In this document: positions 2 to 58,995 of the stretch, in pieces
Position numbering within the stretch: position 1 is the first letter of the stretch
Layout of the letters: every line of letters starts with the position of its first letter
Source of the DNA: an uncultured Candidatus Actinomarina sp.
GTDB taxonomy: Bacteria; Actinomycetota; Acidimicrobiia; Actinomarinales; Actinomarinaceae
Length of the DNA: 64,000 bases
NCBI GenBank assembly: GCA_902604835.1
Contig: CACKZW010000002.1
Span: 17,515 to 81,514, forward strand
Direction of reading: 5' to 3'
The notes under the pieces: generated by a model
Databases searched by the model: none
Seen by the model: only the letters and a program-made list of their open reading frames with translations
Told to the model about the DNA's origin: nothing
Translations under genes and position numbers: made by a program

Positions 2-574
2 ATGAATGCTGGTAAAAGTACAAACTTACTTCAGTCTGCGCACAACTATGAAGAAAGAAACATGAAAACATTAATTTTTACTCCAAAACTTGATGATAGG
101 TTTGGAGAAGGAAAGGTTTCGTCTCGAATTGGACTTGAGAGGGATGTAGAAAAATTCGAAGGAGAAGATGATTTATATGTTTGGACAGCTCATGAACATC
201 AAAGAGAGAAAATCTCCTGTGTTTTAGTTGATGAAGCTCAATTTCTTACTCCAAAACAAGTACTCCAGCTCTCCTTAGTAGTAGATAAATTAAAAATACC
301 AGTCTTATGTTATGGCTTAAGAACTGATTTTAGAGGAGAACCATTTCCCGGAAGTATATATCTTTTAGGTTGGTCAGATGAAATAACTGAGTTAAAAACA
401 ATTTGTAAATCCGGAAAAAAAGCAACCTTTAATGCTCGATTAGATGAAAACGGAAACAGAGTTACAGAAGGCGACCAAATATCAATTGGTCTGAATTATG
501 AGGCTCAAGCTAGAGAGGTATTTGAATTAGATAAAGTTTCACCAATAGATTATCAAATCCCAGAAGCTAATTAG
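2..574 (+). CDS. tdk: Thymidine kinase, 5' end truncated by the window edge; structural Zn ligands mostly lost
   Basis: Walker A remnant MNAGKST, Walker B VLVDEAQF, CYGLRTDFRG motif; the protein normally begins about 10 aa earlier. Confidence 0.95.
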   Translation: MNAGKSTNLLQSAHNYEERNMKTLIFTPKLDDRFGEGKVSSRIGLERDVEKFEGEDDLYVWTAHEHQREKISCVLVDEAQFLTPKQVLQLSLVVDKLKIPVLCYGLRTDFRGEPFPGSIYLLGWSDEITELKTICKSGKKATFNARLDENGNRVTEGDQISIGLNYEAQAREVFELDKVSPIDYQIPEAN

Positions 575-576
575 TT

Positions 577-1056
577 TTAACTGGTTTCTAAAGGTGGCTC
601 AGGTCTTGTAGCTAACCAAACACAAAGGGCTATTCCAAATGAACCAAATATTAAATCTCCAACGAGTGAAAATACTAGAAATATGGTAACAACGAAGGTT
701 GGAATTATCATCAAAATAGCAAGCTTTTTAGCTCTTCTTGAAAGACCTCTGTATGTTTTCCAATTTAAAATCATTGGACCAAAAAGTCTATGATTTTCTA
801 ACCATAATGTAAATCTATCTGAGCATTTTGAGAAAGCCCATGCTGCAATCAAAATAAAAACAGTTGTGGGAAGGCCAGGAATTATTATTCCAATATAACC
901 AAGTGATAATGACAATACACCAAGCGTAAAGAAGAATGGCTTATGTATCTTGATAAAAACTTTTGGAAAAAACCTATAAAGAATAATCAAAACAAAAATA
1001 CCAACACCTATATATAAAAATAGATTTCTAGGAATTTGTTCTAAAAAGTTTGTCAT
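577..1056 (-). CDS. ybaN: YbaN/DUF454-family inner membrane protein
   Basis: LGYIGIIIPGLPTTVFILIAAWAFSKCS..F..WL.NHRLFGP.I.NW family motif; several TM segments. Confidence 0.85.
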   Translation of the reverse strand: MTNFLEQIPRNLFLYIGVGIFVLIILYRFFPKVFIKIHKPFFFTLGVLSLSLGYIGIIIPGLPTTVFILIAAWAFSKCSDRFTLWLENHRLFGPMILNWKTYRGLSRRAKKLAILMIIPTFVVTIFLVFSLVGDLIFGSFGIALCVWLATRPEPPLETS

Positions 1057-1097
1057 ATATTAATTATTAAGCAGATTGAAAATAATCATAAATTATA

Positions 1098-1811
1098 TCA
1101 GACGACAAATACTCTTTTTGCTATAAACTGATCAATACCAAAATAATCATTTTTATTTGTACTGATGGTTATTGAATAATCTCCTGCATCCGCAACATTA
1201 ATTGTTGATCCAGGAATCATTTCATGAGTTTGTAGAAAATCAATCATTGACGAGTCTTTTTTCAGCTCTTCTGTTATTTTTTCTATAGAGTAAGTTTTAT
1301 TTGATTCTACATTTAATAAACTCAACATACTTTTTTCTTGATAATTTGAATATGGAATAGGGTTTCCAAATGGACCTGTTTTTGGATAACCTAACATTTT
1401 TAACATTGCTTTTTCAGTAATCGGGCTTAAAACATTTTCCCATCTCGAGGTTTCTTCGTAAACCTGGTCCCAAGGTAAGTTCAATATCTCGGACAGAAAT
1501 CGTTCAGTTATTCTATGTCTTCTTGCAATATTCTTTGCAAGACATTCCCCAGTTTCAGTAAGTTTCAAGTCATCATTAAATTCAATTAAACCGCTGTTCT
1601 GCATTCTTCCAACTACTTGTGATACATTTGCTCTACTAACACCAAGCCACTCAGCAACACGAGTTTGTTTTATTTCAATACCGACTTCTTTCAGATGAAA
1701 TATGGCTTCAGCATGGGTATAAAATGATTTAGGAAATTTTTCTATCTCTTCATAGCTCAATATTTGATCTTCATTTGAGATATTTTGAGAGTTTAAATCA
1801 TCAATTTGCAT
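1098..1811 (-). CDS. DtxR/IdeR/MntR-family metal-dependent transcriptional regulator (HTH, dimerisation and FeoA-like domains)
   Basis: RVAEWLGVSRANVSQVV HTH; RRHRITERFL; PW..V.EE..RWE; PFGNPIP. Confidence 0.92.
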   Translation of the reverse strand: MQIDDLNSQNISNEDQILSYEEIEKFPKSFYTHAEAIFHLKEVGIEIKQTRVAEWLGVSRANVSQVVGRMQNSGLIEFNDDLKLTETGECLAKNIARRHRITERFLSEILNLPWDQVYEETSRWENVLSPITEKAMLKMLGYPKTGPFGNPIPYSNYQEKSMLSLLNVESNKTYSIEKITEELKKDSSMIDFLQTHEMIPGSTINVADAGDYSITISTNKNDYFGIDQFIAKRVFVV

Positions 1812-1819
1812 ATTGTAGA

Positions 1820-1841
1820 TATGTTAACAGGTATTAACATA
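1820..1841. promoter_or_regulatory. Palindromic operator TATGTTAA-CAGGTA-TTAACATA just upstream of the DtxR-family gene
   Basis: Perfect 8-bp inverted arms with a 6-bp spacer, 9-30 bp from the ATG; contains an extended -10-like TGnTAACAT on the minus strand; a second copy is at 3222-3243. Confidence 0.7.
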
Positions 1842-1860
1842 ATCGCCATTTTGAGAAATT

Positions 1861-1977
1861 CTAAAATACAGGACAACCTACAACTGCGGTAAGGGCAATA
1901 AAGGCTAACCATACTAATGGCTCAAACTTAGTTATTAACTTGGGGTTATCCTCTAATTCTTTAATATTGTTATCCAT
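1861..1977 (-). CDS. Putative 38-aa single-pass membrane micro-protein ending in GCPVF
   Basis: MDNNIKELEDNPKLITKFEPLVWLAFIALTAVVGCPVF; extended -10 TGnTAAAAT 7 nt before the ATG (leaderless pattern). Confidence 0.55.
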   Translation of the reverse strand: MDNNIKELEDNPKLITKFEPLVWLAFIALTAVVGCPVF

Positions 1978-1984
1978 TTCTTTT

Positions 1985-2005
1985 ATTTTAACATTGTTGT
2001 AAAAT
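1985..2005. promoter_or_regulatory. Back-to-back TAAAAT -10 hexamers (minus 1985-1990, plus 2000-2005)
   Basis: Each lies 6-7 nt before an ATG, matching the leaderless layout of other genes in this window. Confidence 0.55.
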
Positions 2006-2011
2006 AATAAT

Positions 2012-2116
2012 ATGGCATGTCCTTTTGCATATTTACTAGTAGCTTTTATGTGGGTAGTCCGTAATGGCGGAAAAATATTTCCACGCGCTTTATTCAAGCA
2101 ATTTTCAAAGATTTAA
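2012..2116 (+). CDS. Putative 34-aa membrane micro-protein starting MACPF (absent from the ORF track)
   Basis: Manual translation MACPFAYLLVAFMWVVRNGGKIFPRALFKQFSKI; TAAAAT-6nt-ATG; hydrophobic core then basic tail; overlaps the hemH 3' end by 23 nt. Confidence 0.5.
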   Translation: MACPFAYLLVAFMWVVRNGGKIFPRALFKQFSKI

Positions 2117-3134
2117 CTTTTAAACTTTCAGCATCATTAACTATGGAAATTATAAGATTTATAGTTTCTTCAGAATCATTTAAACAAGGTATGTAAGTCA
2201 TTTTTTCTCCACCTGCATCAAAAAAAGTTTTTCTTCCCCTGATGTCAATTTCTTCTAATGTTTCTAAACAATCTGAAATAAAAGAAGGACATAGAATTCC
2301 TATTGATGATTTACCTTCATTTGGTAAAGCTTCCAATCTCTTATCAGTAAAAGGAGTCAACCATCCTGGACCAATTCTTGATTGATATGCAATTTCCCAT
2401 TCTGTATCATTTAGACCTAACTCTTTTGCGATCTTAATTGAGGCTTGTACTGTGTGAGCCTTGTAACAATCAGCTGAACCAAGTTCTTCTACTTCGCAAC
2501 ATTCACTGCTAGCAAAACAGTGAGATCCAGTTTCGTCTGTCTTTTTTGCTTGCCTCTTTGGAATACCGTGGTAGCTGAATATTAACTTATCAAATTTTTC
2601 TTTATTGAGATATTTTTGAACAGAATTTGCAACAGCACTGATATATTTTTGATTTTTGTAAAAGGGTTTTATATATACCAATTCAGCATCAGGAATAATT
2701 TCTTTTGCGATACGATCCACTTCTACTTGAGTAGTAATAGTAGTTGACATAGCATTATGAGGATAAAGCGGTAAAACAAAGATTTTGTTATAACCTTTAG
2801 ATTGTAAATTTTTAAGCGCTGACTCAATACATGGCTCTTCGTATCTCATCGCAACTTCTACATGCCAATCTGTTTTTCTTGATAACTTTTCCTTAATTTT
2901 TAATGTCGAAATTATAAGTGGGGAGCCTTTATCTGTCCAAATTTGTGAATATGCATGTAATGTTTGTTTAGGCCTAAAAGGTAAAATGAATAACTTTAAA
3001 ATAAGTTGTTGAAGAAATTTTGGTATGTCAACTACATAGTCATCAGATAAGAAAATATTTAAATATTTTCTAACACTTTTTTTGTTTAAGTCTCTAGGTG
3101 AACCTAAATTAACAAGAAGAACAGCTTTTTTCAT
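2094..3134 (-). CDS. hemH: Ferrochelatase of protoporphyrin/Gram-negative type, with an internal C-x5-CC-x9-C segment
   Basis: LLVNLGSP, FLSD..VVD, AMRY, FSYHGIP, YQSR.GP, PSF.SDCLETLEEI motifs. Confidence 0.95.
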   Translation of the reverse strand: MKKAVLLVNLGSPRDLNKKSVRKYLNIFLSDDYVVDIPKFLQQLILKLFILPFRPKQTLHAYSQIWTDKGSPLIISTLKIKEKLSRKTDWHVEVAMRYEEPCIESALKNLQSKGYNKIFVLPLYPHNAMSTTITTQVEVDRIAKEIIPDAELVYIKPFYKNQKYISAVANSVQKYLNKEKFDKLIFSYHGIPKRQAKKTDETGSHCFASSECCEVEELGSADCYKAHTVQASIKIAKELGLNDTEWEIAYQSRIGPGWLTPFTDKRLEALPNEGKSSIGILCPSFISDCLETLEEIDIRGRKTFFDAGGEKMTYIPCLNDSEETINLIISIVNDAESLKVKSLKIA

Positions 3135-3200
3135 AAGATAATTAATTGTAACTTTTTATTTCAAAAATAAGTAATCAGGAGGCTAATAAAAAAAATTATA

Positions 3201-3243
3201 AAATAATTACTATTAACTTTATTTGTTAACTACTATTAACAAA
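3201..3243. promoter_or_regulatory. Operator TTTGTTAA-CTACTA-TTAACAAA (3222-3243) plus a degenerate tandem copy (3201-3218) between hemH and futA
   Basis: 15/18 identity to the site at 1822-1839; TACTATTAAC is repeated 23 bp apart; ends 23 bp upstream of the futA ATG. Confidence 0.7.
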
Positions 3244-3266
3244 ATATAAGCTAATAAAGGTAAAAA

Positions 3267-4382
3267 ATGAACAAAAAATTTATTGCTTTGATTTCTGTAA
3301 TGATCATGGTTTTTGCAGCATGTGCCGCCGAAGGCGAGCAAGGTGAAGCAGGACCAGCAGGCGAAGCAGGGCCAGCAGGGCCAGCAGGCGAGGTTTCTCA
3401 AGAAGCTATTGACGCTGCTGTTGAAGCTGCTCTGGCTGAACCTGAGGCAGAAGTTGGAGGGACACTTGTTATTTATAGTGGTAGAAAAGAAAGCTTAGTT
3501 GCTGATGTAATTGCTGCTTTTGAAGCTACTTCAGGAGTAAAAGTTGAAGTTAGATATGCAAAAAGTGCTGCACTAGCTGGGACTTTAGAACTTGAAGGTG
3601 CAATTAGCCCAGCAGATGTTTTTCTTTCACAAGATCCAGTAAGTCTAGGCGTTGTAGCCAAAGCAGGTCTATTTGATAGATTACCAGCTGATTTACTTGA
3701 TAACGTCCCATCATGGGCTGTTGACAAAAATGGTTTTTGGGTAGGTACATCAGGAAGATCTCGATCTTTAGTTGTTGACACAAGAGATGTAACAGATGCC
3801 GAATTACCTTCTGATATTTATGGTTTAAATGATGAAAAATTTAGAAATAGATTGGGACTTGCACCAACAAACTCATCTTTTATTGCAATGATTGCATGCA
3901 TGATTGAGTCTGATGGTGAAGAAAAAGTTCTTGAGTGGTTAACTGCTATCAATGGACTGGGATATACAGAATATCCAAAGAACTCACCTCAAGTTGCTGC
4001 CGCAGCTGCAGGTGAACTAGACATTGGAATGATTAATCACTATTACACATTGAGAACATTGGCTGAAGCTGGTGATACTCCTATTAAGAATGTGTTTTTA
4101 GATGGTGGTTGTGGTGCAATGGTGATGCCAGCAGGTGCAGGTGTTTTGTCAACTAGTCAAAACAAACCAGCAGCTTTAGCATTTATTGAATATTTACATT
4201 CAACAAGTGCTCAAGAGCATTTTACTAATACCGTATATGAGTTCCCTCTCGTACCAGGTGTAACACCAAATGCATTATTACCAGATATAAACAGTTTGAA
4301 TTCTCCATCGAATTTAAATTGGTCAGCGTTAGCACTTTGGCAGGAAAAAGCTGTTGAATTGATTGCGCAGGCAGGTTTCTAG
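3267..4382 (+). CDS. futA: Fe3+ ABC transporter substrate-binding lipoprotein (FutA/FbpA-like) with a collagen-like linker
   Basis: Lipobox FAAC (C19); LVIYSGR, SPADVF, GRSR, GMINHYY iron-binding tyrosine pair. Confidence 0.88.
   Translation: MNKKFIALISVMIMVFAACAAEGEQGEAGPAGEAGPAGPAGEVSQEAIDAAVEAALAEPEAEVGGTLVIYSGRKESLVADVIAAFEATSGVKVEVRYAKSAALAGTLELEGAISPADVFLSQDPVSLGVVAKAGLFDRLPADLLDNVPSWAVDKNGFWVGTSGRSRSLVVDTRDVTDAELPSDIYGLNDEKFRNRLGLAPTNSSFIAMIACMIESDGEEKVLEWLTAINGLGYTEYPKNSPQVAAAAAGELDIGMINHYYTLRTLAEAGDTPIKNVFLDGGCGAMVMPAGAGVLSTSQNKPAALAFIEYLHSTSAQEHFTNTVYEFPLVPGVTPNALLPDINSLNSPSNLNWSALALWQEKAVELIAQAGF
3333..3395 (+). repeat. Seven Gly-X-Y triplets (GEQ GEA GPA GEA GPA GPA GEV)
   Basis: Locally GC-rich repeats such as gcagggccagcagggccagca, directly after the lipidated Cys. 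Confidence 0.9.
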
Positions 4383-4422
4383 TCAGTCATTAAATTAACT
4401 AGTAAGCTCGAAACCGAATAAG

Positions 4423-4459
4423 ATTCTGGCCAAGGAAACTTGGCCAGAATTTTTCTTTT
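4423..4459 (+). terminator. Intrinsic terminator between futA and futB
   Basis: 12-bp perfect stem ATTCTGGCCAAG-GAAA-CTTGGCCAGAAT followed by TTTTCTTTT. Confidence 0.9.
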
Positions 4460-4478
4460 AATAACTTAAAATCATAGA

Positions 4479-4484
4479 TATCCT
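4479..4484 (+). promoter_or_regulatory. -10 hexamer TATCCT for a leaderless futB transcript
   Basis: TAnnnT 7 nt before the GTG, downstream of the terminator; no SD. Confidence 0.5.
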
Positions 4485-4491
4485 TATAAAT

Positions 4492-6048
4492 GTGAGGATC
4501 CCAAAAACTCTGTTAACAATAAATTCGCTAATTTTAGTAATATTTATTTCTCCTGTAATTTATATGCTTTGGAGATTTCTTAATTTTTCAAGATCTATTT
4601 CCAGTTTTTTCGAATCATGGGATGTTTTTGGTTTAGTGTTTAATACATTAATAGTATTTTTTGCTGTTGTATTTTCAAGCTTGATAATTGGTTTAATAAT
4701 ATCAATTATCACCGTAAGGTTTGATTTTCCTGGATCAAAAATCTTATTCACTTTGTGTGCACTTCCATTAGTTATACCCTCATATATAGGGGCCTTGACA
4801 TATATTTCAGCATTTTCTCCCAAAGGATTATTCGTTCAAATTTTTAACAGGTACGGCATTAATGAAATCGCTGGAATAGAGGGTTTTTTAGGAAGTTGGT
4901 TAGTTTTAACTTTGTTTACTTACCCTTACGTACAGCTCATTTGCACAAGTGCATTGAGGAATCTTGATTCAACAGTTGAAGATGCTGCCCGTTCTCTCGG
5001 CGTAAATCAATTCAAGGTCTATACGAATGTTGTTATTCCCCGGCTTAAAAAGCCCATAATATATTCTGGATTATTGGTGGGACTTTATGTTATTTCTGAT
5101 TTCGGAGCAGTTTCATTAATGCGATATTCTACAGTTACGAAAGCTATTTATGCATATTATGAATTGAGCATACTTGGAGACCCTGTAATATTTTACTCAA
5201 GCCTTCTAATTGTTCTAGCCTTAATAATTAGTTTTGCTCAAAGAGGATCTGATACCTCAAGGTCTGCAAAAGTATCAGGAACGCCAAGAATACCAAAAAA
5301 AATATTACTTAATGGTAAAGGGAAATTAATTGCTTACTCGTTTCTAGGCCTTGTAGTTTTTCTTGGCTTGATTATTCCAATTTCTGTATTGAGCTTTTGG
5401 TTATTAAGAGGAATTTATTATGGGAACGATGTTAGTTCTTCAATTCCTGGAATCCTTGGATCTTTTTCAGCTGCGATAACAACCTCATTTTTTGCAATAA
5501 TTATAGCTATGCCTATCGTAATTTTGATATCTCAATACAAATCTAGATTTGGTGACCTCCTTGAAAAGATAATGTTGTCTCTTTATGGATTACCTCATCT
5601 CGCAGTAGGTGTTTCAATATTATTCATCTCCATAAAATTATTTCCTACTATTTATCAAAGTTTTTTTGCACTAGTAATTTCCTATTTGATTGTCTTTTTA
5701 CCTCAGGCAATAGGTGGAGGTCAAGCTTCAATGGAACAAGTGAAGTCATCCTATATTGAGGCAAGTCTTGGCCTTGGACAGTCAAAAATAGATACATTTA
5801 GAAAAATTACTTTCCCATTAATATATAGAGGTTTATTTGCTGGTGGTGCACTTGTTTTTCTTTCAACAATGAAAGAGTTACCTCAGACCTTGCTACTAAG
5901 ACCAACAGAATTCAGCACTATGGCAGTTGACGTATGGTCATTTGCATCTGAAGCGTTATTTACTCAAGCTGCATTTTCCGCCTTTATATTGTTGGCAATA
6001 AGTGCAATTCCGACTTATATATTAAGTACTAGGAATTTAGAGGTTTAA
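4492..6048 (+). CDS. futB: Iron ABC transporter permease (FutB/FbpB-like)
   Basis: Two EAA-type loops (EDAARSLG, EASLGLG); PLVIPSYIGA; MKELP.TLLLRP. Confidence 0.9.
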   Translation: MRIPKTLLTINSLILVIFISPVIYMLWRFLNFSRSISSFFESWDVFGLVFNTLIVFFAVVFSSLIIGLIISIITVRFDFPGSKILFTLCALPLVIPSYIGALTYISAFSPKGLFVQIFNRYGINEIAGIEGFLGSWLVLTLFTYPYVQLICTSALRNLDSTVEDAARSLGVNQFKVYTNVVIPRLKKPIIYSGLLVGLYVISDFGAVSLMRYSTVTKAIYAYYELSILGDPVIFYSSLLIVLALIISFAQRGSDTSRSAKVSGTPRIPKKILLNGKGKLIAYSFLGLVVFLGLIIPISVLSFWLLRGIYYGNDVSSSIPGILGSFSAAITTSFFAIIIAMPIVILISQYKSRFGDLLEKIMLSLYGLPHLAVGVSILFISIKLFPTIYQSFFALVISYLIVFLPQAIGGGQASMEQVKSSYIEASLGLGQSKIDTFRKITFPLIYRGLFAGGALVFLSTMKELPQTLLLRPTEFSTMAVDVWSFASEALFTQAAFSAFILLAISAIPTYILSTRNLEV

Positions 6049-6050
6049 AA

Positions 6051-7076
6051 ATGGTATTTGATAATTTAATTATTCGAGCTAGATCATTATCAAAATCTTA
6101 TGGCGACGAAACCGTATTAGAAGACTTCAATATTGATATTTGGTATGGTTCAATTTTTGGAATCCTAGGTGTTTCCGGATCTGGTAAAACAACAGCTTTA
6201 AGACTATTGGCTGGATTTGAGAATCCTGACGAGGGAACAATTGAAATGCATAATAAAGTAATTTATGACAAAAAAATTAATATTCCACCAGAGGAGAGAA
6301 AAATTGGTATGGTTTTTCAGGATTACGCTCTTTTTCCTCATTTAACTGTTGAAAAAAATATTGCCTTCGGTCTTTCAAAGGACGAAATTAAAAATGGAAG
6401 ATTAGAAGAAATAATCAACATGACTAACTTACAACTATATAGAAATAAATATCCACAAGATATTTCTGGAGGCCAACAACAAAGAGTATCTATTGCAAGA
6501 GCCTTAGCCCCAAAACCAGAAGTCATATTATTGGATGAACCTTTTACAAGTTTAGATGCACAAATGGCTAGGGACTTAAGAGAAGAGGTTGTTTCTTTAT
6601 TGAGAGCAACAAAAACTACCGGAATTATCGTTACACATGATCAAGAAGAAGCACTATCAGTTTGTGATATTGTAAGTGTCCTTGAAAACGGAAAAGTCAT
6701 ACAAAGTGCAACCCCGCAAGAGATTTACTTAAACCCTATTAGTCAAACAGTAGCAAACTCAGTCGGTGATCCAAATATTATAAAAGGAACCTCTACAAAT
6801 GGAAGAGTAAAAACTTCGCTTGGTACATTCAATTCAGCATATGACGGAGACTTAGATGTATCAATTAGGCCAGAATGTATAGAAGTTAATTTAGACTCTA
6901 ATGGGGATTACATTGTAAAGGAATGTATATTCTATGGACATGATCAAGTGATCTCATTTGAAAATAAAAATGGTGAAGTTTTTAGAGCAAGATCCTTACC
7001 TTCAATGATTTTTGAGCCAGGGGATCAAGTATGTATCGATGTAACCGAAGTTACTACTTTTCCCTCAAAGCGCTGA
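6051..7076 (+). CDS. futC: Iron ABC transporter ATPase (FutC/FbpC-like)
   Basis: GVSGSGKT, VFQDYALFPHL, ISGGQQQR, LLDEPF; operon context. Confidence 0.88.
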   Translation: MVFDNLIIRARSLSKSYGDETVLEDFNIDIWYGSIFGILGVSGSGKTTALRLLAGFENPDEGTIEMHNKVIYDKKINIPPEERKIGMVFQDYALFPHLTVEKNIAFGLSKDEIKNGRLEEIINMTNLQLYRNKYPQDISGGQQQRVSIARALAPKPEVILLDEPFTSLDAQMARDLREEVVSLLRATKTTGIIVTHDQEEALSVCDIVSVLENGKVIQSATPQEIYLNPISQTVANSVGDPNIIKGTSTNGRVKTSLGTFNSAYDGDLDVSIRPECIEVNLDSNGDYIVKECIFYGHDQVISFENKNGEVFRARSLPSMIFEPGDQVCIDVTEVTTFPSKR

Positions 7077-7259
7077 ATTAATTTTTGAAATTTTACCTGC
7101 AATATTTTGTAAATCGCTTTCTATTTCAGCTAATCTCTCTTTTGCTCTTTTATTAGAATTTTCTGATATAAATTCCCTTGATGAGGATAGAGATTTTGAG
7201 ATAACCTCAATTTCATTAAGCATTTTTTGGATTTCTTGATACATTTCTTGTTTATTCAT
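7065..7259 (-). CDS. Small (~64 aa) soluble coiled-coil hypothetical protein
   Basis: MNKQEMYQEIQKMLNEIEVISKSL...LAEIESDLQNIAGKISKINSAL heptad pattern; the ORF track starts at 7286 but the second Met is preferred. Confidence 0.6.
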   Translation of the reverse strand: MNKQEMYQEIQKMLNEIEVISKSLSSSREFISENSNKRAKERLAEIESDLQNIAGKISKINSAL

Positions 7260-7294
7260 AATTAAGTAGATGTTTGTAAATTCCATATTAATAT

Positions 7295-8122
7295 GTGAGT
7301 GTCAAAGGGGGGAATTTGATATCTGAAAAAATAGGGAAACTAAGACGTTTCAATATCATCATGGGCTTCATGCACTTGATTCAAGGGTCTGGATTATTTT
7401 GGCTAGGAACTGTTGTAAATTCAGATTTTGTTGTGCCTATTACGCTTACTCAACTGGTTGGTGTAGGCAGCCCTGAAGATCCCTCATCTTTTGCACTTGT
7501 TCCTGAGTTAGAAATCTGGAGAGAAATAACGAACTTTGGTCCAGCCGTGGCTACATTTTTGTTAGCTTCTGCTGTTGCACATTTTTTGATTTCTGGACCA
7601 TTTTATAAAAAATATCAAGAAGATCTTGCAAAAGGAATCAACAAAGTTAGATGGATTGAATATTCAATAAGCGCTTCTGTAATGATTGTCCTTATTGCAT
7701 TACTTGTTGGAATTTATGATGTTTGGGCCCTTCTTGGAATTTTCTTTATGAATGCTGCCATGTGTTGGTTTGGTTGGATGATGGAAGTTAATAACCAATA
7801 TACTGATAAAGTTGATTGGACAAGTTACATTATGGGGTGTTTAGTTGGTGTTACACCATGGATATTTATATTTATCAATCTGATAGGTGACGGAGTAGCA
7901 ACTGATTCCAATCCACAAGGAGTTCCTCAATTTGTTGTTTGGATATTTGTAAGTATATTTTTATTCTTCAATACTTTTTCCATAAATATGGTTCTCCAAT
8001 ATAAAGGTGTTGGAAAATGGAAAGACTATTTGTATGGAGAAAGAGCATATATATGGTTGAGTCTTCTAGCAAAAACAGCTTTAGCTTGGCAAGTATTCTT
8101 TGGAACCTACCAACCTAATTAA
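7295..8122 (+). CDS. Heliorhodopsin
   Basis: MHLIQ and AHFL histidines, RWIEYSISAS (counterion Glu), LSLLAKTALAWQVF with the retinal-binding Lys; 7 TM segments; start may be TTG at 7316. Confidence 0.95.
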   Translation: MSVKGGNLISEKIGKLRRFNIIMGFMHLIQGSGLFWLGTVVNSDFVVPITLTQLVGVGSPEDPSSFALVPELEIWREITNFGPAVATFLLASAVAHFLISGPFYKKYQEDLAKGINKVRWIEYSISASVMIVLIALLVGIYDVWALLGIFFMNAAMCWFGWMMEVNNQYTDKVDWTSYIMGCLVGVTPWIFIFINLIGDGVATDSNPQGVPQFVVWIFVSIFLFFNTFSINMVLQYKGVGKWKDYLYGERAYIWLSLLAKTALAWQVFFGTYQPN

Positions 8123-8197
8123 ATTATTTAATTTTTTTAATTAAAAAAAACATTAAAACAAAAATAAAAACCATACCTATATATGACAAAACCATTT

Positions 8198-9283
8198 TTA
8201 ACTAACAATCTCAATTAATGGGATGGCGACTTCTTTAGGTGTAAGTCCGCCGTGGTATCCTCTTAAATTTGCACTCAGATGATTTGGAAAAATAATATGA
8301 CCATCATCAAGTAAGAACACATGTTCAGGAAAAAAGTTATTTCTTTCATCGTCATTTGGCAATCCAATGAGTGATTCTATTTCTTGTTTTTCTAGGAAAT
8401 GTCCAGGGATATTTTTAAAGATATTTTTTATTTTTTTCATATCTCCATTTATATATACCGATCTTTGGTCTCCGTAAATCTTTACTGAATCATCATATAC
8501 AATCTTGTGTCTATTTTTATCATCTACGTTTATGACACCATGATCAGCTGTTAAACAAGTGTATCGACCCACATCACTTTTTGTTATTTCCGATAGAAAC
8601 TCAGAAAACTTTTTAACTTCTATTAACCATTCTTCGCTATTTGTACCATAAACATGTGCAGCAACATCGATCACGGGATAATATAAAAAGTTAAATTGAT
8701 TATCTAAAATATTTGGTAAGGTGAATATTTCTCCAAGTTCATCTAAAGTTTCATATCCAATTTGATTTGCCCCTCTATATAAATGTTTTGACAAAGATGT
8801 GTTGATTAAATCCTTAGGTTGAATGACATTAAAAACTATATTTTTTTCATTAAGAATGTTCCAAATTGTTTTTTGATTAGAAAAAAAATTTTTATCCTGT
8901 AAATAATTTTCCGAACCTCTCCAATTCAATGTATTAATTAATTTATTTTCAGATTTATCAAAATGGTAATATCCAATCAACCCATTTTCTATTGGGTCGC
9001 TTCCTAAATTGACTGATCCCAGAGCTACACTTGTTGAGCTTGGAAATGTTGAGACAATTTCATCAGTCTGGTTCTGTGTAAGTATATTATCTAAATTCTC
9101 AATATTTTTACTACCAAGGCCATCTACTAATATGAAGTTAATTTTTTTCATTGAGCTTTCATATTTCTTTAAACGTAATTTACTATCTAATTTAAAAACC
9201 TCTTCAGAACATAATTTGTTCACAATTGTTTGTATCAAGTCTGTTATGTTTGGAGAATTGAGAAATTTTTTTTTATCCATCAA
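8198..9283 (-). CDS. Alkaline phosphatase superfamily protein (nucleotide pyrophosphatase/phosphodiesterase type)
   Basis: LVDGLG, STFPSST nucleophile region, D...H (IDVAAH), TADHG, YHGGL. Confidence 0.85.
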   Translation of the reverse strand: MMDKKKFLNSPNITDLIQTIVNKLCSEEVFKLDSKLRLKKYESSMKKINFILVDGLGSKNIENLDNILTQNQTDEIVSTFPSSTSVALGSVNLGSDPIENGLIGYYHFDKSENKLINTLNWRGSENYLQDKNFFSNQKTIWNILNEKNIVFNVIQPKDLINTSLSKHLYRGANQIGYETLDELGEIFTLPNILDNQFNFLYYPVIDVAAHVYGTNSEEWLIEVKKFSEFLSEITKSDVGRYTCLTADHGVINVDDKNRHKIVYDDSVKIYGDQRSVYINGDMKKIKNIFKNIPGHFLEKQEIESLIGLPNDDERNNFFPEHVFLLDDGHIIFPNHLSANLRGYHGGLTPKEVAIPLIEIVS

Positions 9284-9343
9284 AAAATTTTACAAAAGAA
9301 TTCCACCGATGTTTTAAAAAAAACTAAAATTTTAGAAGCATAC

Positions 9344-9349
9344 TAAAGT
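9344..9349 (+). promoter_or_regulatory. -10 hexamer TAAAGT for a leaderless nuoA transcript
   Basis: TAnnnT-6nt-ATG; no SD. Confidence 0.5.
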
Positions 9350-9355
9350 TAATAT

Positions 9356-9721
9356 ATGATTTCTTATTTTCAAGATTACGTAACGGTTGGAGCAATGATA
9401 GGTTTGGGACTCTTATTGTTTTTAGTTTTTATTTCTTTATCTGCATTGCTTAGTCCAAAGAAACCTACTCCAGAAAAAATTAAGACATATGAGTGTGGTG
9501 TAGATCCTGTTGGAGGGGGATGGAGCCAAACATATGTTAGATACTATATCTTTGGGTTACTTTTTGTAATATTTGACGTTGAGGCTGTATTTATCTTTCC
9601 ATGGGCATTAAATCTCGAGAATCTTGGATATTTTGGTTTAATTGAGATGTTTATTTTTATTTTTATTCTTCTGCTTGGTTTAATTTATGCAATTAGAAAG
9701 GATGTCTTGAAATGGGAGTAA
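9356..9721 (+). CDS. nuoA: NADH-quinone oxidoreductase subunit A
   Basis: [29 protein letters not shown]. Confidence 0.95.
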
Positions 9722-10209
9722 TAGACAAATTTGGAGTTCCTAAGCCTATTTCTAAAATACTTAATTGGGCGAGAGCATATGATATGTGGTATTTTCAATT
9801 TGGACTAGCCTGTTGTGCCATTGAAGTTATGGCCGCTAGCGGACCAAGACATGATTTTATGAGATTAGGAATCATTCCTCTTCCTGCATCTCCAAGACAA
9901 GCTGATTTGATGGTAGTTGCGGGTACTGTAACAGACAAAATGGCACCTTCTGTAAAAAGATTGTATGATCAAATGCCTGAACCAAAATATGTGATTTCTA
10001 TGGGTTCTTGTTCTAATAGTGGGGGTCCTTATTGGGACTCATATTCAGTTACAAAGGGTGTTGATCAGCTCATACCTGTGGATGTATATGTCCCAGGTTG
10101 CCCACCTCGACCAGAAGCACTGCAAGAGGGAATTGTTTTACTTCAGAAAAAAATAAAAGGTGAAAATATGAATGAAAAGTGGAGAGAAAAAGACATTGAA
10201 CCAGTCTGA
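9712..10209 (+). CDS. nuoB: NADH-quinone oxidoreductase subunit B
   Basis: [23 protein letters not shown]. Confidence 0.95.
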
Positions 10210-57690: not shown

Positions 57691-58995
57691 TTGAAAAAAT
57701 ATTTTGGTACCGATGGTATTAGGGGTATCCCGAAAGAAACTTTATCTCAAGAGTTAATTTCTTCAATTTGTGCATCTGTTGAAATCTTAATTGATCCTAA
57801 AAGTGTCGCCATCATATCCGATACGAGAGAATCATCTGATGAAATTTTGAATTGGATTTCTTTAGGCTTTTCTGAAAATGTAAAGATATATAATCATGGC
57901 ATTCTTCCTTCGGGCTCAATGCCCATAATCTTGAAAAAGTTTGATTACGATCTGGGAATTATAATTTCTGCTTCACATAATCCAGCTAATTACAATGGAA
58001 TAAAATTAATTCAAAAAAATGGTTCAAAGCTTGATGATGATATCGAAATTCAAATTGAGAACAGACTAAATAGTCTTAAGTTGCCAACGAAAGGTTCGGA
58101 AATAATTAATCTTTCCGATGGGCATGATGAGTATTTACGATATTTACAGGAAATTACTGACATTAATTTTGATAATTTTGAAATAATAATTGATGCTGCA
58201 AATGGAGCTGCTTTTAGTGTTATAAAAGAATTATTAGATTCCAAAAATGCAAAATATCGAATTATAAATGACACTCCCAATGGTCTAAACATAAATGATA
58301 ATTGCGGAGCAACTTCTCCGGAAAATTTACAAAATGAGATAAAAAACAGGGAAATCGGTGCTTCTTTTGACGGTGACGCTGATAGATTGATAATGGTTGA
58401 TGAAGAGGGAAGAATTGTTAATGGGGATTTAATATTAACTCTTCTTGCTAAATATTTTTCTGAATTGAATAACCTAAAAAACAATATTGTTGTTAGTACC
58501 GTTATGTCTAATTACGGTTTTAAACAGGCTATGCAAAAATTTGATTTCGATCTTATCGAAACTCCTGTTGGAGATAAATATGTTGCAGAATCAATGAATA
58601 AATACGATGCCTCATTAGGAGGTGAGCAATCGGGCCATATAATAATTGCTAATTTACTACCTGTTGGAGATGGTCTTATTACTTTAATTATGGTTTTAAA
58701 AGCCCTCGAACACTTTGGAATGACACTTTGTGATTTTAAGAATGAAAATTTATATGAGTATCCACAGAAACTTACAAACATAGAGTTAACAAATAAATTA
58801 AACGATGAAGAAATAGAATACATAAATCAAATAGCACTTGATATGTCAATAAATAAAGATTTAGATGGCCGATATCTTATTCGAAATTCAGGTACCGAGC
58901 CATTATTAAGAGTATTAGTTGAGGCTAAAAGCGCCGAAGCAATGGAAGATTTTTCTGACGAACTGTTAACAAAGATTAATAAATACTTAAATTAG
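57691..58995 (+). CDS. glmM: Phosphoglucosamine mutase
   Basis: YFGTDGIRG, IISASHNP..YNGIK, FDGDADR, VGDKYV, GGEQSGH, RNSGTEP. Confidence 0.94.
   Translation: MKKYFGTDGIRGIPKETLSQELISSICASVEILIDPKSVAIISDTRESSDEILNWISLGFSENVKIYNHGILPSGSMPIILKKFDYDLGIIISASHNPANYNGIKLIQKNGSKLDDDIEIQIENRLNSLKLPTKGSEIINLSDGHDEYLRYLQEITDINFDNFEIIIDAANGAAFSVIKELLDSKNAKYRIINDTPNGLNINDNCGATSPENLQNEIKNREIGASFDGDADRLIMVDEEGRIVNGDLILTLLAKYFSELNNLKNNIVVSTVMSNYGFKQAMQKFDFDLIETPVGDKYVAESMNKYDASLGGEQSGHIIIANLLPVGDGLITLIMVLKALEHFGMTLCDFKNENLYEYPQKLTNIELTNKLNDEEIEYINQIALDMSINKDLDGRYLIRNSGTEPLLRVLVEAKSAEAMEDFSDELLTKINKYLN

Follow-up and report, generated by a model that had tools for sequence, protein, structure and literature searches.

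Two conserved Cys-Pro micro-proteins between dtxR and an iron importer in Candidatus Actinomarina, candidates for a small membrane module of an iron/heme homeostasis locus

The window, a 64,000-nucleotide stretch of DNA from an uncultured Candidatus Actinomarina sp., holds two short, divergent open reading frames, here called A and B, between a ferrochelatase gene and the gene of a DtxR-family regulator. The locus reads as follows.

577-1056, minus strand: gene of a DUF454 (YbaN-like) membrane protein (Pfam DUF454), downstream of dtxR
1098-1811, minus strand: dtxR, gene of a DtxR/IdeR-family regulator (Pfam Fe_dep_repr_C, Fe_dep_repress and FeoA), directly downstream of A
1822-1839, no strand assigned: palindromic operator, an exact match to TGTTAA-N6-TTAACA, between the stop codon of A and the start of dtxR
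1861-1977, minus strand: micro-protein gene A, an ATG-started frame of 38 residues, MDNNIKELEDNPKLITKFEPLVWLAFIALTAVVGCPVF
1985-1990, minus strand: TAAAAT, the -10-like hexamer of A, 7 nt before its ATG, a putative leaderless-type promoter
2000-2005, plus strand: TAAAAT, the -10-like hexamer of B, 6 nt before its ATG, a putative leaderless-type promoter
2012-2116, plus strand: micro-protein gene B, a frame of 34 residues, MACPFAYLLVAFMWVVRNGGKIFPRALFKQFSKI
2094-3134, minus strand: hemH, ferrochelatase gene (Pfam Ferrochelatase, E = 3e-89), convergent with B and a variable neighbour that is no fixed part of the module
3224-3241, no strand assigned: second copy of the operator, also an exact match, upstream of the iron ABC importer
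3267-6048, plus strand: Fe(III)-type ABC importer, made up of a lipoprotein SBP (3267-4382) and a double-length permease (4492-6048) (Pfam SBP_bac_11/6/1/8)

A preliminary description of the window had placed both peptides, their two TAAAAT hexamers, which lie 9 bp apart, and a 23-nt overlap of B with the 3' end of hemH, and all of these are found in the sequence. The gap that it gave as 233 bp measures 282 bp between the stop of hemH and the start of dtxR, the smaller figure being counted from the stop codon of A. A 78-residue, TTG-started form of the minus-strand frame (1861-2097) was discarded, as its upstream part is the antisense frame of B that shares its wobble positions, and stops interrupt it in other clades. 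Shuffles of the gap yield two ATG-started frames of at least 34 residues in 5% of cases; as a single sequence the pair is hardly more than chance, and it is conservation that settles the question.

Judged by how they vary across Ca. Actinomarina genomes, A and B are genuine protein-coding genes under strong purifying selection at the protein level. We find a dN/dS of 0.12 for B and 0.10 for A in the proposed frames, compared to 1.1-2.7 in other frames and 0.31 in the antisense frames with shared wobble positions, which contain stop codons in one clade. Entropy by codon position (0.55/0.34/1.17 for B and 0.58/0.28/1.22 for A) places the variability at the third position, and both frames are open in relatives, that of B without any stops, so that an open frame, third-position variability and a low dN/dS confined to the proposed frame coincide in each gene. 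Conservation, dN/dS and synteny in relatives, the check that had been proposed for the pair, thus bear it out, with open frames, invariant Cys-Pro, a dN/dS of ~0.10-0.12 and recurrent neighbours. A search of positions 1500-3400 against Rfam matched no family.

The hexamers noted before each ATG are likewise conserved in relatives, at a fixed distance from both start codons. Among distinct upstream regions, the motif TAnnnT lies 5-9 nt before the B start in all 38, frequently as TGnTATAAT, and 6-7 nt before the A start (7 nt in all but two) in 28 of 34, with the misses explained, compared to a background of 12% when every ATG of these loci is taken. Neither gene is preceded by a Shine-Dalgarno sequence, and both show the sequence pattern of leaderless genes, a -10 hexamer ~6-9 nt upstream and no Shine-Dalgarno. 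A generic sigma-70 scan lists neither promoter because it requires a -35 box; a terminator scan returned no terminators, and no terminator-like hairpin is seen between the micro-ORFs and the next genes.

The operator between A and dtxR occupies the same place in nearly all dtxR-bearing loci and is missing from genomes without dtxR, and the position of the second copy is conserved as well, just upstream of the SBP gene or, in G041-type loci, of hemH. A further operator-like site at 58964, inside the 3' end of glmM and with one mismatch, is probably a chance occurrence. No DtxR operator lies upstream of A or B or in the spacer between them; the operators sit downstream of both genes, so that iron-responsive control of A and B is not indicated, and both genes are still found after dtxR and the operators have been lost.

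Of the 64 genomes of the genus, 55 have B, as a single copy, and 51 have A, and both occur in the sister genus, compared to none of ~236 other genomes of the class. Among 185,579 species genomes, B turns up in 53, every one of them Actinomarina-like, and a profile of B run against 1.84 billion representative proteins retrieves six small peptides of the same family and one marginal match, to a 1404-aa protein (E = 2.3e-4), that is probably spurious. For homologous-protein searches, A was queried as an in-frame extension and B as a 47-aa variant. Even with E up to 10, six variants of A and B match nothing in Pfam or NCBIfam, PDB profile searches with either peptide return only noise, and a 386-aa 'ABC permease' in the 90% cluster of A, weighed as a clue to a fusion, proved to be an unrelated sequence and a clustering artefact. 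Peptides of the family range from 31 to 47 residues. This distribution indicates that A and B are lineage-specific, restricted to Ca. Actinomarina and its sister genus, and that they are co-inherited. The word 'unannotated', used in the preliminary description, is right only in part, as identical or near-identical peptides are present in public protein sets, where they appear only as unnamed or 'hypothetical protein' calls outside any family.

A adjoins B in every locus that holds both, and in most loci the two are divergent and 18-55 bp apart. One lineage (G021, L122 and L123) has them in tandem, B upstream of A, with stop/start overlaps of the form TAATG or TGATG, which point to translational coupling of the two genes. 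An invertible B segment in G021 was considered and rejected, as the tandem arrangement is a true one, confirmed on the single contig L122, and the break in the G021 contig is an adapter artefact. The order on the A side is A, operator, dtxR and DUF454, and in dtxR-less genomes (L113 and L115) DUF454 directly follows A; the literature on DUF454/YbaN yielded nothing useful. On the B side, the operator is followed by hemH, when present, and by the SBP and permease genes. B precedes the SBP gene on the same strand, whether or not hemH intervenes, in 50 of the 52 genome loci that extend past B (53 loci in all, one of which ends inside hemH and was not counted), and the importer is the most constant neighbour of B apart from A. 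Through at least three different rearrangements, that of the tandem lineage among them, A and B have stayed next to dtxR-DUF454 and the importer. Three genomes (G009, G001 and L095) have B without A or dtxR, so that B can evidently do without A. That the pair adjoins the iron genes could be inherited gene order in a streamlined genome, and not a functional link.

The preliminary description tied both peptides to heme synthesis, as heme sensors or modulators of HemH or the transporter, and the association with heme genes does recur. A ferrochelatase gene is present in 32 of the 64 genomes of the genus and lies beside B in all 32, in three different arrangements; in one exceptional lineage, the only one able to make heme, a complete nine-gene operon, hemH-hemA-C-D-B-E-Y-L-hemQ, ends 37 nt before B, a junction seen both in G021 and on the independent contig L122, with the order hemQ, B, A. 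The other 32 genomes, among them the closed or nearly closed G009, G078, G008, G018 and G043, have no hemH and yet keep B, and usually A, with the core sequence unchanged, an observation from gene content by which a role as modulators of HemH is refuted. ALAD and the chlorite-dismutase-family HemQ are missing from 63 of the 64 genomes, and without ALAD heme synthesis is probably impossible there; no FecCD-type heme permease scores above the Pfam cut-off. Read across the genus, these absences indicate that the A/B pair is independent of ferrochelatase and of endogenous heme synthesis. Nor does a heme-synthesis gene define its context, as had been supposed, the invariant neighbours of A being dtxR-DUF454 and those of B the genes of the iron ABC importer.

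The two peptides differ in layout. In A, a polar N-terminal part bearing the conserved DPK...KFEP motif leads into one hydrophobic helix and the ending G-C-P-x-[FI], its Cys always fourth from the C-terminal end, and in the ortholog alignment P12, K13, K17, E19, P20, W23, L29, G34, C35 and P36 are invariant. In B, M-x-C-P-[FY]-A-Y opens a 14-residue hydrophobic helix that is followed by FMW-x-V-R-N-G-G-K and a variable basic tail, in which the net charge of +5 is located; its invariant residues are M1, C3, P4, A6, Y7, F12, M13, W14, V16, R17, G19 and G20. Cys-Pro, pointed out earlier in these two sequences, is invariant in every ortholog of both, in a proteome where CP is rare (0.37 per 1000 residues, with Cys at 0.59%), and hydrophobic residues follow it in each (C3-P4-[FY] in B and C35-P36-[VAIL]-[FI] in A), which is the sequence pattern of a heme-regulatory motif (HRM). 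No His is conserved in either alignment. Hydropathy (Kyte-Doolittle, 2.1-2.5 over 15 residues) and AF2 predictions, with a helix at 12-34 in A and helices at 4-17 and 25-32 in B, agree with the earlier view of both as membrane peptides and give each of them one hydrophobic helix; at ~14 residues, that predicted in B is short for a full membrane span. The model of A is of the tail-anchored type.

We propose, at about an even chance, that A and B are two genuine micro-proteins that act jointly as a small membrane module, single-pass and of two subunits, of a DtxR-centred iron/heme homeostasis locus. In such a module, B would insert with the N-terminus facing out and the basic tail facing the cytoplasm, and A, tail-anchored, would have its N-terminus inside and its C-terminus outside. 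The two helices are predicted to contact one another and would pack along their conserved faces, with Cys3-Pro4 of B and Cys35-Pro36 of A meeting at the outer-leaflet boundary as a putative shared thiol site, which might form a reversible disulfide or ligate iron or heme. KFEP in A, and VRNGGK with the basic helix in B, may then be conserved cytoplasmic juxtamembrane motifs that touch the products of neighbouring genes, the candidates being DtxR/DUF454, encoded on the flank of A, and the Fe(III)-type ABC importer, encoded on that of B. A more specific proposal, which we regard as highly unlikely, is that the pair forms a two-peptide, Cys-Pro-ligated heme site at the membrane surface that relays or captures exogenous heme, or porphyrin for the lone ferrochelatase.

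That A and B outlast the loss of dtxR, of both operators and of hemH, that the operator is upstream of neither gene and that the family has no detectable relatives to tie it to a function would all suit real micro-proteins unrelated to iron or heme, such as subunits or stabilisers of some other membrane complex, placed here by the inherited gene order of a streamlined genome. This is unlikely, given an adjacency to dtxR-DUF454 and the importer that is kept through at least three rearrangements, tandem lineage included, and given that B heads the importer in 50 of 52 loci. The reading of Cys-Pro as heme-regulatory motifs, in which the peptides bind heme via the Cys thiolate and act as heme sensors or HemH modulators, draws on the invariant CP with a hydrophobic residue next to it in both peptides, on the hemH that adjoins B in every genome carrying it, on the complete heme operon that abuts B (G021 and L122), and on heme oxygenase-2, in which CP motifs near a membrane anchor act as a thiol/disulfide switch (PMC2742820). 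It is quite unlikely, however: half of the genomes keep B, and usually A, without a ferrochelatase and with an unchanged core, 63 of 64 have neither ALAD nor HemQ, so that the functional coupling to heme synthesis or to a heme enzyme expected of an HRM is not seen, the predicted Cys position is embedded in the membrane at its outer face with no flexible cytosolic segment, and a conserved His is absent.

Leaderless short ORFs that serve as attenuators are reported from mycobacteria, and the layout is symmetric on both sides (micro-ORF, operator, regulated gene) with no terminator-like hairpin between them, as might be expected of cis-acting leader peptides whose translation tunes read-through into dtxR, in the case of A, or into hemH or the importer, in the case of B. 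Leader peptides always precede the gene that they regulate, in the same direction, and have a few constrained codons at most, whereas here amino-acid constraint extends over the entire peptide in a helix-face pattern, B in the window's clade converges on hemH with nothing co-directional downstream and is still fully conserved, B of the tandem lineage is upstream of A instead of the importer, and A is retained after loss of dtxR; we consider a leader function extremely improbable. Scarcely credible is a toxin-like or secreted peptide, be it a type I toxin, a double-glycine bacteriocin or a RiPP precursor, even though B, at ~34 residues and with a basic tail behind its hydrophobic helix, is sized and shaped like a type I toxin, and its 21 conserved first residues end in GG ahead of a variable tail. 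Type I toxins, which come with an overlapping antisense RNA gene, are multi-copy or patchy in distribution, whereas A and B are single-copy and syntenic across a whole genus with genomes of ~1 Mb; their divergent layout has two genes transcribed away from each other, processing or export genes are absent from all flanks examined, and the supposed 'leader' is hydrophobic, which double-glycine leaders are not.

Few free-living marine bacteria are as small or as abundant as Ca. Actinomarina (OM1/OCS155), in whose ~1 Mb genome very little is dispensable. In so small a genome, the strong purifying selection that has kept A and B while hemH, the whole heme operon and even dtxR were repeatedly lost makes an important role likely. 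The pair sits where iron uptake, iron regulation and the surviving heme genes meet, and the lineage appears to be a heme auxotroph without a recognisable heme importer (bioRxiv 10.1101/2021.01.11.426183), as the gene absences found here also suggest. Both peptides are small enough for chemical synthesis, so that the heme, metal and disulfide chemistry of the paired Cys-Pro is directly testable without culture. More generally, raw sequence can yield conserved partner micro-proteins.

The closest gene class is that of the leaderless small-protein genes of Actinobacteria, which is not a family (Shell et al. 2015, PMC4633059). A and B share with it short ORFs (31-47 codons), the absence of a Shine-Dalgarno sequence, a -10 hexamer 5-9 nt upstream and an actinobacterial host, but there is no sequence relationship, and the leaderless status of A and B is predicted from sequence. 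Metal homeostasis has small membrane proteins with accessory or regulatory roles, among them KdpF, MgtS and CydX, and also MntS, which is controlled by the DtxR-family MntR. Like them, A and B have 30-40 residues, are encoded beside a transporter or metal regulator and, as in the membrane-bound examples, have one hydrophobic helix; unlike them, A and B come as partners of which each carries an invariant Cys-Pro, and their sequences resemble none of these (Pfam and NCBIfam give no match even at E = 10). The likeness to MntS ends at control, as the repressor operator lies in the promoter of mntS but downstream of the A and B ORFs. By eye, B also resembles the small cbb3 oxidase maturation factor CcoS/FixS (PF03597) in its hydrophobic helix followed by F-x-W-x-x-[RK]-[SN]-G, but three B variants do not match that profile at E up to 10, and no cbb3 or ccoGHI context is found in the flanks examined.

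In heme oxygenase-2, Cys-Pro HRMs form a thiol/disulfide switch close to a C-terminal membrane anchor (PMC2742820). A and B likewise combine CP with a hydrophobic residue close to a membrane anchor, and their two CP motifs could pair, but HRMs are found in flexible cytosolic segments of larger proteins, whereas in A and B the CP is 2-4 residues from the chain end, at the predicted outer membrane boundary. The two small single-helix subunits of cytochrome b559, PsbE and PsbF, share one heme, which is ligated by His. A and B, too, are two co-encoded peptides of similar size, each with one predicted helix and one conserved residue that could act as a ligand close to the same face of the membrane, although this residue is Cys, with no conserved His in either peptide, no homology is apparent and cofactor binding by A and B is hypothetical. 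If they did form a two-peptide heme site, the pair would be a functional analogue of the cytochrome b559 alpha/beta heterodimer, with cysteines in place of histidines.

The two short reading frames, here called A and B, lie between the genes for a DtxR/IdeR-family regulator (dtxR) and ferrochelatase (hemH), in a window of ~33% G+C drawn from a 0.94-Mb genome.

2-574, plus strand, tdk
577-1056, minus strand, DUF454/YbaN-like membrane protein
1098-1811, minus strand, DtxR/IdeR-family regulator, dtxR
1822-1839, operator TGTTAA-N6-TTAACA, first copy, between A and dtxR
1861-1977, minus strand, micro-protein A, MDNNIKELEDNPKLITKFEPLVWLAFIALTAVVGCPVF
2012-2116, plus strand, micro-protein B, MACPFAYLLVAFMWVVRNGGKIFPRALFKQFSKI
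2094-3134, minus strand, ferrochelatase, hemH
3224-3241, operator, second copy, just before the first gene downstream on the B side
3267-4382, plus strand, substrate-binding protein (SBP) of a Fe(III)-type ABC importer
4492-6048, plus strand, permease of the same importer

Re-reading the sequence places both frames where the preliminary description had them, with a TAAAAT hexamer 7 nt ahead of the A ATG and 6 nt ahead of that of B, the two hexamers 9 bp apart, and confirms that B overlaps the 3' end of hemH by 23 nt; the reported 233-bp gap holds when counted from the A stop, but the true hemH-to-dtxR gap is 282 bp. In this proteome Cys-Pro is uncommon, at 0.37 per 1000 residues (Cys, 0.59%). 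When the gap is shuffled, 5% of cases contain two ORFs that start with ATG and reach 34 aa or more, and the pair is therefore unremarkable from a single sequence alone. B and hemH converge over 2094-2116, the last codons of each, and the same overlap is present in a second large clade (e.g., loci L103-L120); if both are transcribed, each 3' end would be antisense to the other.

Comparison with relatives establishes that A and B are genuine protein-coding genes. Both frames are open and both peptides recognizable in every relative with the locus assembled, and in the proposed frames pooled pairwise Nei-Gojobori dN/dS is 0.10 (A) and 0.12 (B), against 0.31 in the wobble-sharing antisense frames, which contain stop codons in one clade, and 1.1-2.7 in other frames. 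The third codon position holds most of the variability in both genes, and no Rfam family matches. The A consensus is ...DPK-x3-K[FY]EP-x2-W-...-VGCP-x-[FI]-stop, with the Cys always fourth from the C-terminal end, and B has the consensus M-x-CP[FY]AY-x4-FMW-x-VR[NT]GGK with a basic tail that varies; the Cys-Pro to which the preliminary description drew attention is invariant in A and B. A 78-aa, TTG-initiated version of the minus-strand ORF was rejected as the gene, its extra part being the antisense of B and stop-interrupted in other clades.

A profile search finds B, in one copy and free of stops, in 55 of 64 genus genomes and in the one sister-genus genome, with no match in ~236 other genomes of the class; A is present in 51 of the 64 and in the sister genus, and nowhere else in the class. 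Across 185,579 species genomes, B occurs in 53, all Actinomarina-like, and the different phylum label on two of these is probably mis-binning. Among 1.84 billion representative proteins, the profile of B recovers six small peptides of the B family and no fusions; one marginal hit, to a protein of 1404 aa (E = 2.3e-4), is probably spurious. Searches of Pfam, NCBIfam and the PDB with A and B return nothing. The peptides had been called unannotated; both are in fact already in public protein sets, unnamed or as "hypothetical protein", but they are uncharacterised. We find that A and B are two new micro-protein families confined to one lineage.

The two genes are adjacent in every locus bearing both, usually divergently, with start codons 18-55 bp apart. 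One lineage (genome G021 plus the independent metagenome contigs L122 and L123) carries them in tandem, B then A, with the B stop overlapping the A start (TAATG or TGATG), an overlap typical of subunits whose translation is coupled. For G021, an inversion at the contig end was considered and rejected, as the single contig L122 confirms a real tandem. The G021 contig begins with Nextera adapter and overlaps a neighbouring contig by 54 nt; the adapter occupies positions 1-52 of L061/L121, the terminal stretch of a public MAG contig, and its translation, VSYTHLRAHET, is fused to B inside a public protein call (P0064), a product of assembly contamination with no biology. All 38 distinct upstream regions of B have TAnnnT 5-9 nt ahead of the ATG, often extended to TGnTATAAT, and in 28 of the 34 distinct regions of A it precedes the start by 6-7 nt (7 nt in all but two), against a background of 12% for all ATGs of the same loci; the A misses stem from start codons mis-set by the search pattern, one N in the sequence and the lack of a separate A promoter in the tandem lineage. 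No Shine-Dalgarno sequence is found upstream of A or B. Judged from sequence, both genes are organised like the leaderless genes of actinobacteria, among which many code for small proteins (PMC4633059).

Downstream of A we always find the operator, dtxR and then DUF454, or DUF454 directly where dtxR is lost. In 50 of the 52 genome loci that continue beyond B, the SBP-permease genes are downstream of it on the same strand; the remaining locus of 53 ends inside hemH. The loci examined have no operator in the A-B spacer. Across the genus (loci L068-L120), the operator is conserved ahead of both dtxR and the iron importer, and it vanishes together with dtxR in one clade (L064, L065, L095, L113 and L115). 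A third operator-like site (58964-58981), with one mismatch and inside the 3' end of glmM, is probably due to chance. Genomes without dtxR have lost both operators and keep B, and some keep A. Because three genomes retain B without A or dtxR (loci L064/L065, in G009 and G001, and L095), B may have a separate function together with the importer. The B of G009 and G001 differs in its tail, carries R17K and may be extended by 5 residues at the N-terminus; the importer next to it is divergent (SBP 46% identical).

The presence and orientation of hemH between B and the SBP gene vary: it is co-directional with B in the G041 type and the sister genus, convergent in the window's type and absent in others. 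Any ferrochelatase is found in only 32 of 64 genomes; where present, hemH is beside B, except in G021, where it lies ~9 kb off at the far end of a heme operon that ends at B. The tree of tdk, DUF454 and dtxR implies several independent hemH losses, and closed or nearly closed genomes without ferrochelatase retain B and, in most cases, A, their core sequence unchanged, which rules out the suggestion that the peptides modulate HemH. Of the 64 genomes, 63 lack both ALAD and the chlorite-dismutase-family HemQ, in agreement with the heme auxotrophy reported in Actinomarinales (bioRxiv 10.1101/2021.01.11.426183). In 31 of these 63, hemH is the only heme-synthesis gene detected of three families checked, and so may function in salvage or, through the reverse reaction, provide iron. 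The one genome with ALAD and HemQ is G021, with a tight operon ending 37 nt before B.

L121 (G021:C23) 135-9794, minus strand, nine-gene coproporphyrin-type heme operon (hemH, hemA, hemC, hemD, hemB, hemE, hemY, hemL, hemQ::Rieske); also L122 2-2010
L121 135-1241, minus strand, and L122 904-2010, plus strand, hemQ::Rieske

L122 has the same order (hemL, hemQ::Rieske, B, A, dtxR). This HemQ, of the coproheme decarboxylase type, carries a fused C-terminal Rieske [2Fe-2S] domain, an unusual combination. The near-identical L123 has lost the operon bar a hemQ 3' remnant and keeps B, A and dtxR, which looks like a recent deletion capturing the step to heme auxotrophy; at 250-430, ~30 nt of the hemQ 3' end are left beside an AMP-binding enzyme gene on the other strand. 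The link to heme genes therefore recurs, yet A and B outlive the loss of heme synthesis.

AlphaFold2 models from family alignments predict, for B, a helix (4-17), a loop at NGGK and a short basic helix (25-32; mean pLDDT 71) and, for A, a helix (12-34) with an unstructured CPVF end (mean pLDDT 73). Hydrophobic stretches span residues 2-16 of B and 21-35 of A, and the +5 net charge of B resides in its tail only. By the positive-inside rule, the B N-terminus would be outside and its tail inside, and A would be tail-anchored with its C-terminus outside, topologies that would put both Cys-Pro motifs at the same outer membrane boundary. Invariant residues are spaced i, i+3/4, i+7 (B: C3, A6/Y7, M13/W14, R17; A: W23, F26, L29, V33/G34), which we read as the pattern expected of a helix-packing face.

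With coding status, conservation, co-inheritance, coupling, promoter architecture and genomic context as observed, A and B are most likely two subunits of one small membrane module in an iron/heme homeostasis locus. Inserted and paired as predicted, their Cys-Pro motifs would form a shared thiol site on the outer face, which would be a redox-active disulfide or would bind iron or heme, and the conserved cytoplasmic motif of B would contact the importer and that of A, DtxR/DUF454. The earlier proposal of heme sensing through Cys-Pro keeps some probability, as the motifs have the form of a heme-regulatory motif (HRM) and heme genes cluster at B, although neither HemH nor endogenous heme synthesis can be involved. 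A role as leader peptides fails, since the whole peptide is constrained and B is conserved even where nothing co-directional lies downstream; nor does a toxin or bacteriocin fit two genes that are single-copy and syntenic in a streamlined genome. Among nine Actinomarina genomes (G000-G008), none has a FecCD-type ABC permease (heme, siderophore or B12 type) above the Pfam cut-off. We regard it as improbable that the two peptides build a Cys-ligated heme site through which a heme auxotroph without such a permease acquires heme. In kind, A and B are like the small membrane accessory proteins of metal homeostasis; what sets them apart is that they co-evolve as a pair and that the terminal Cys-Pro of each is invariant.
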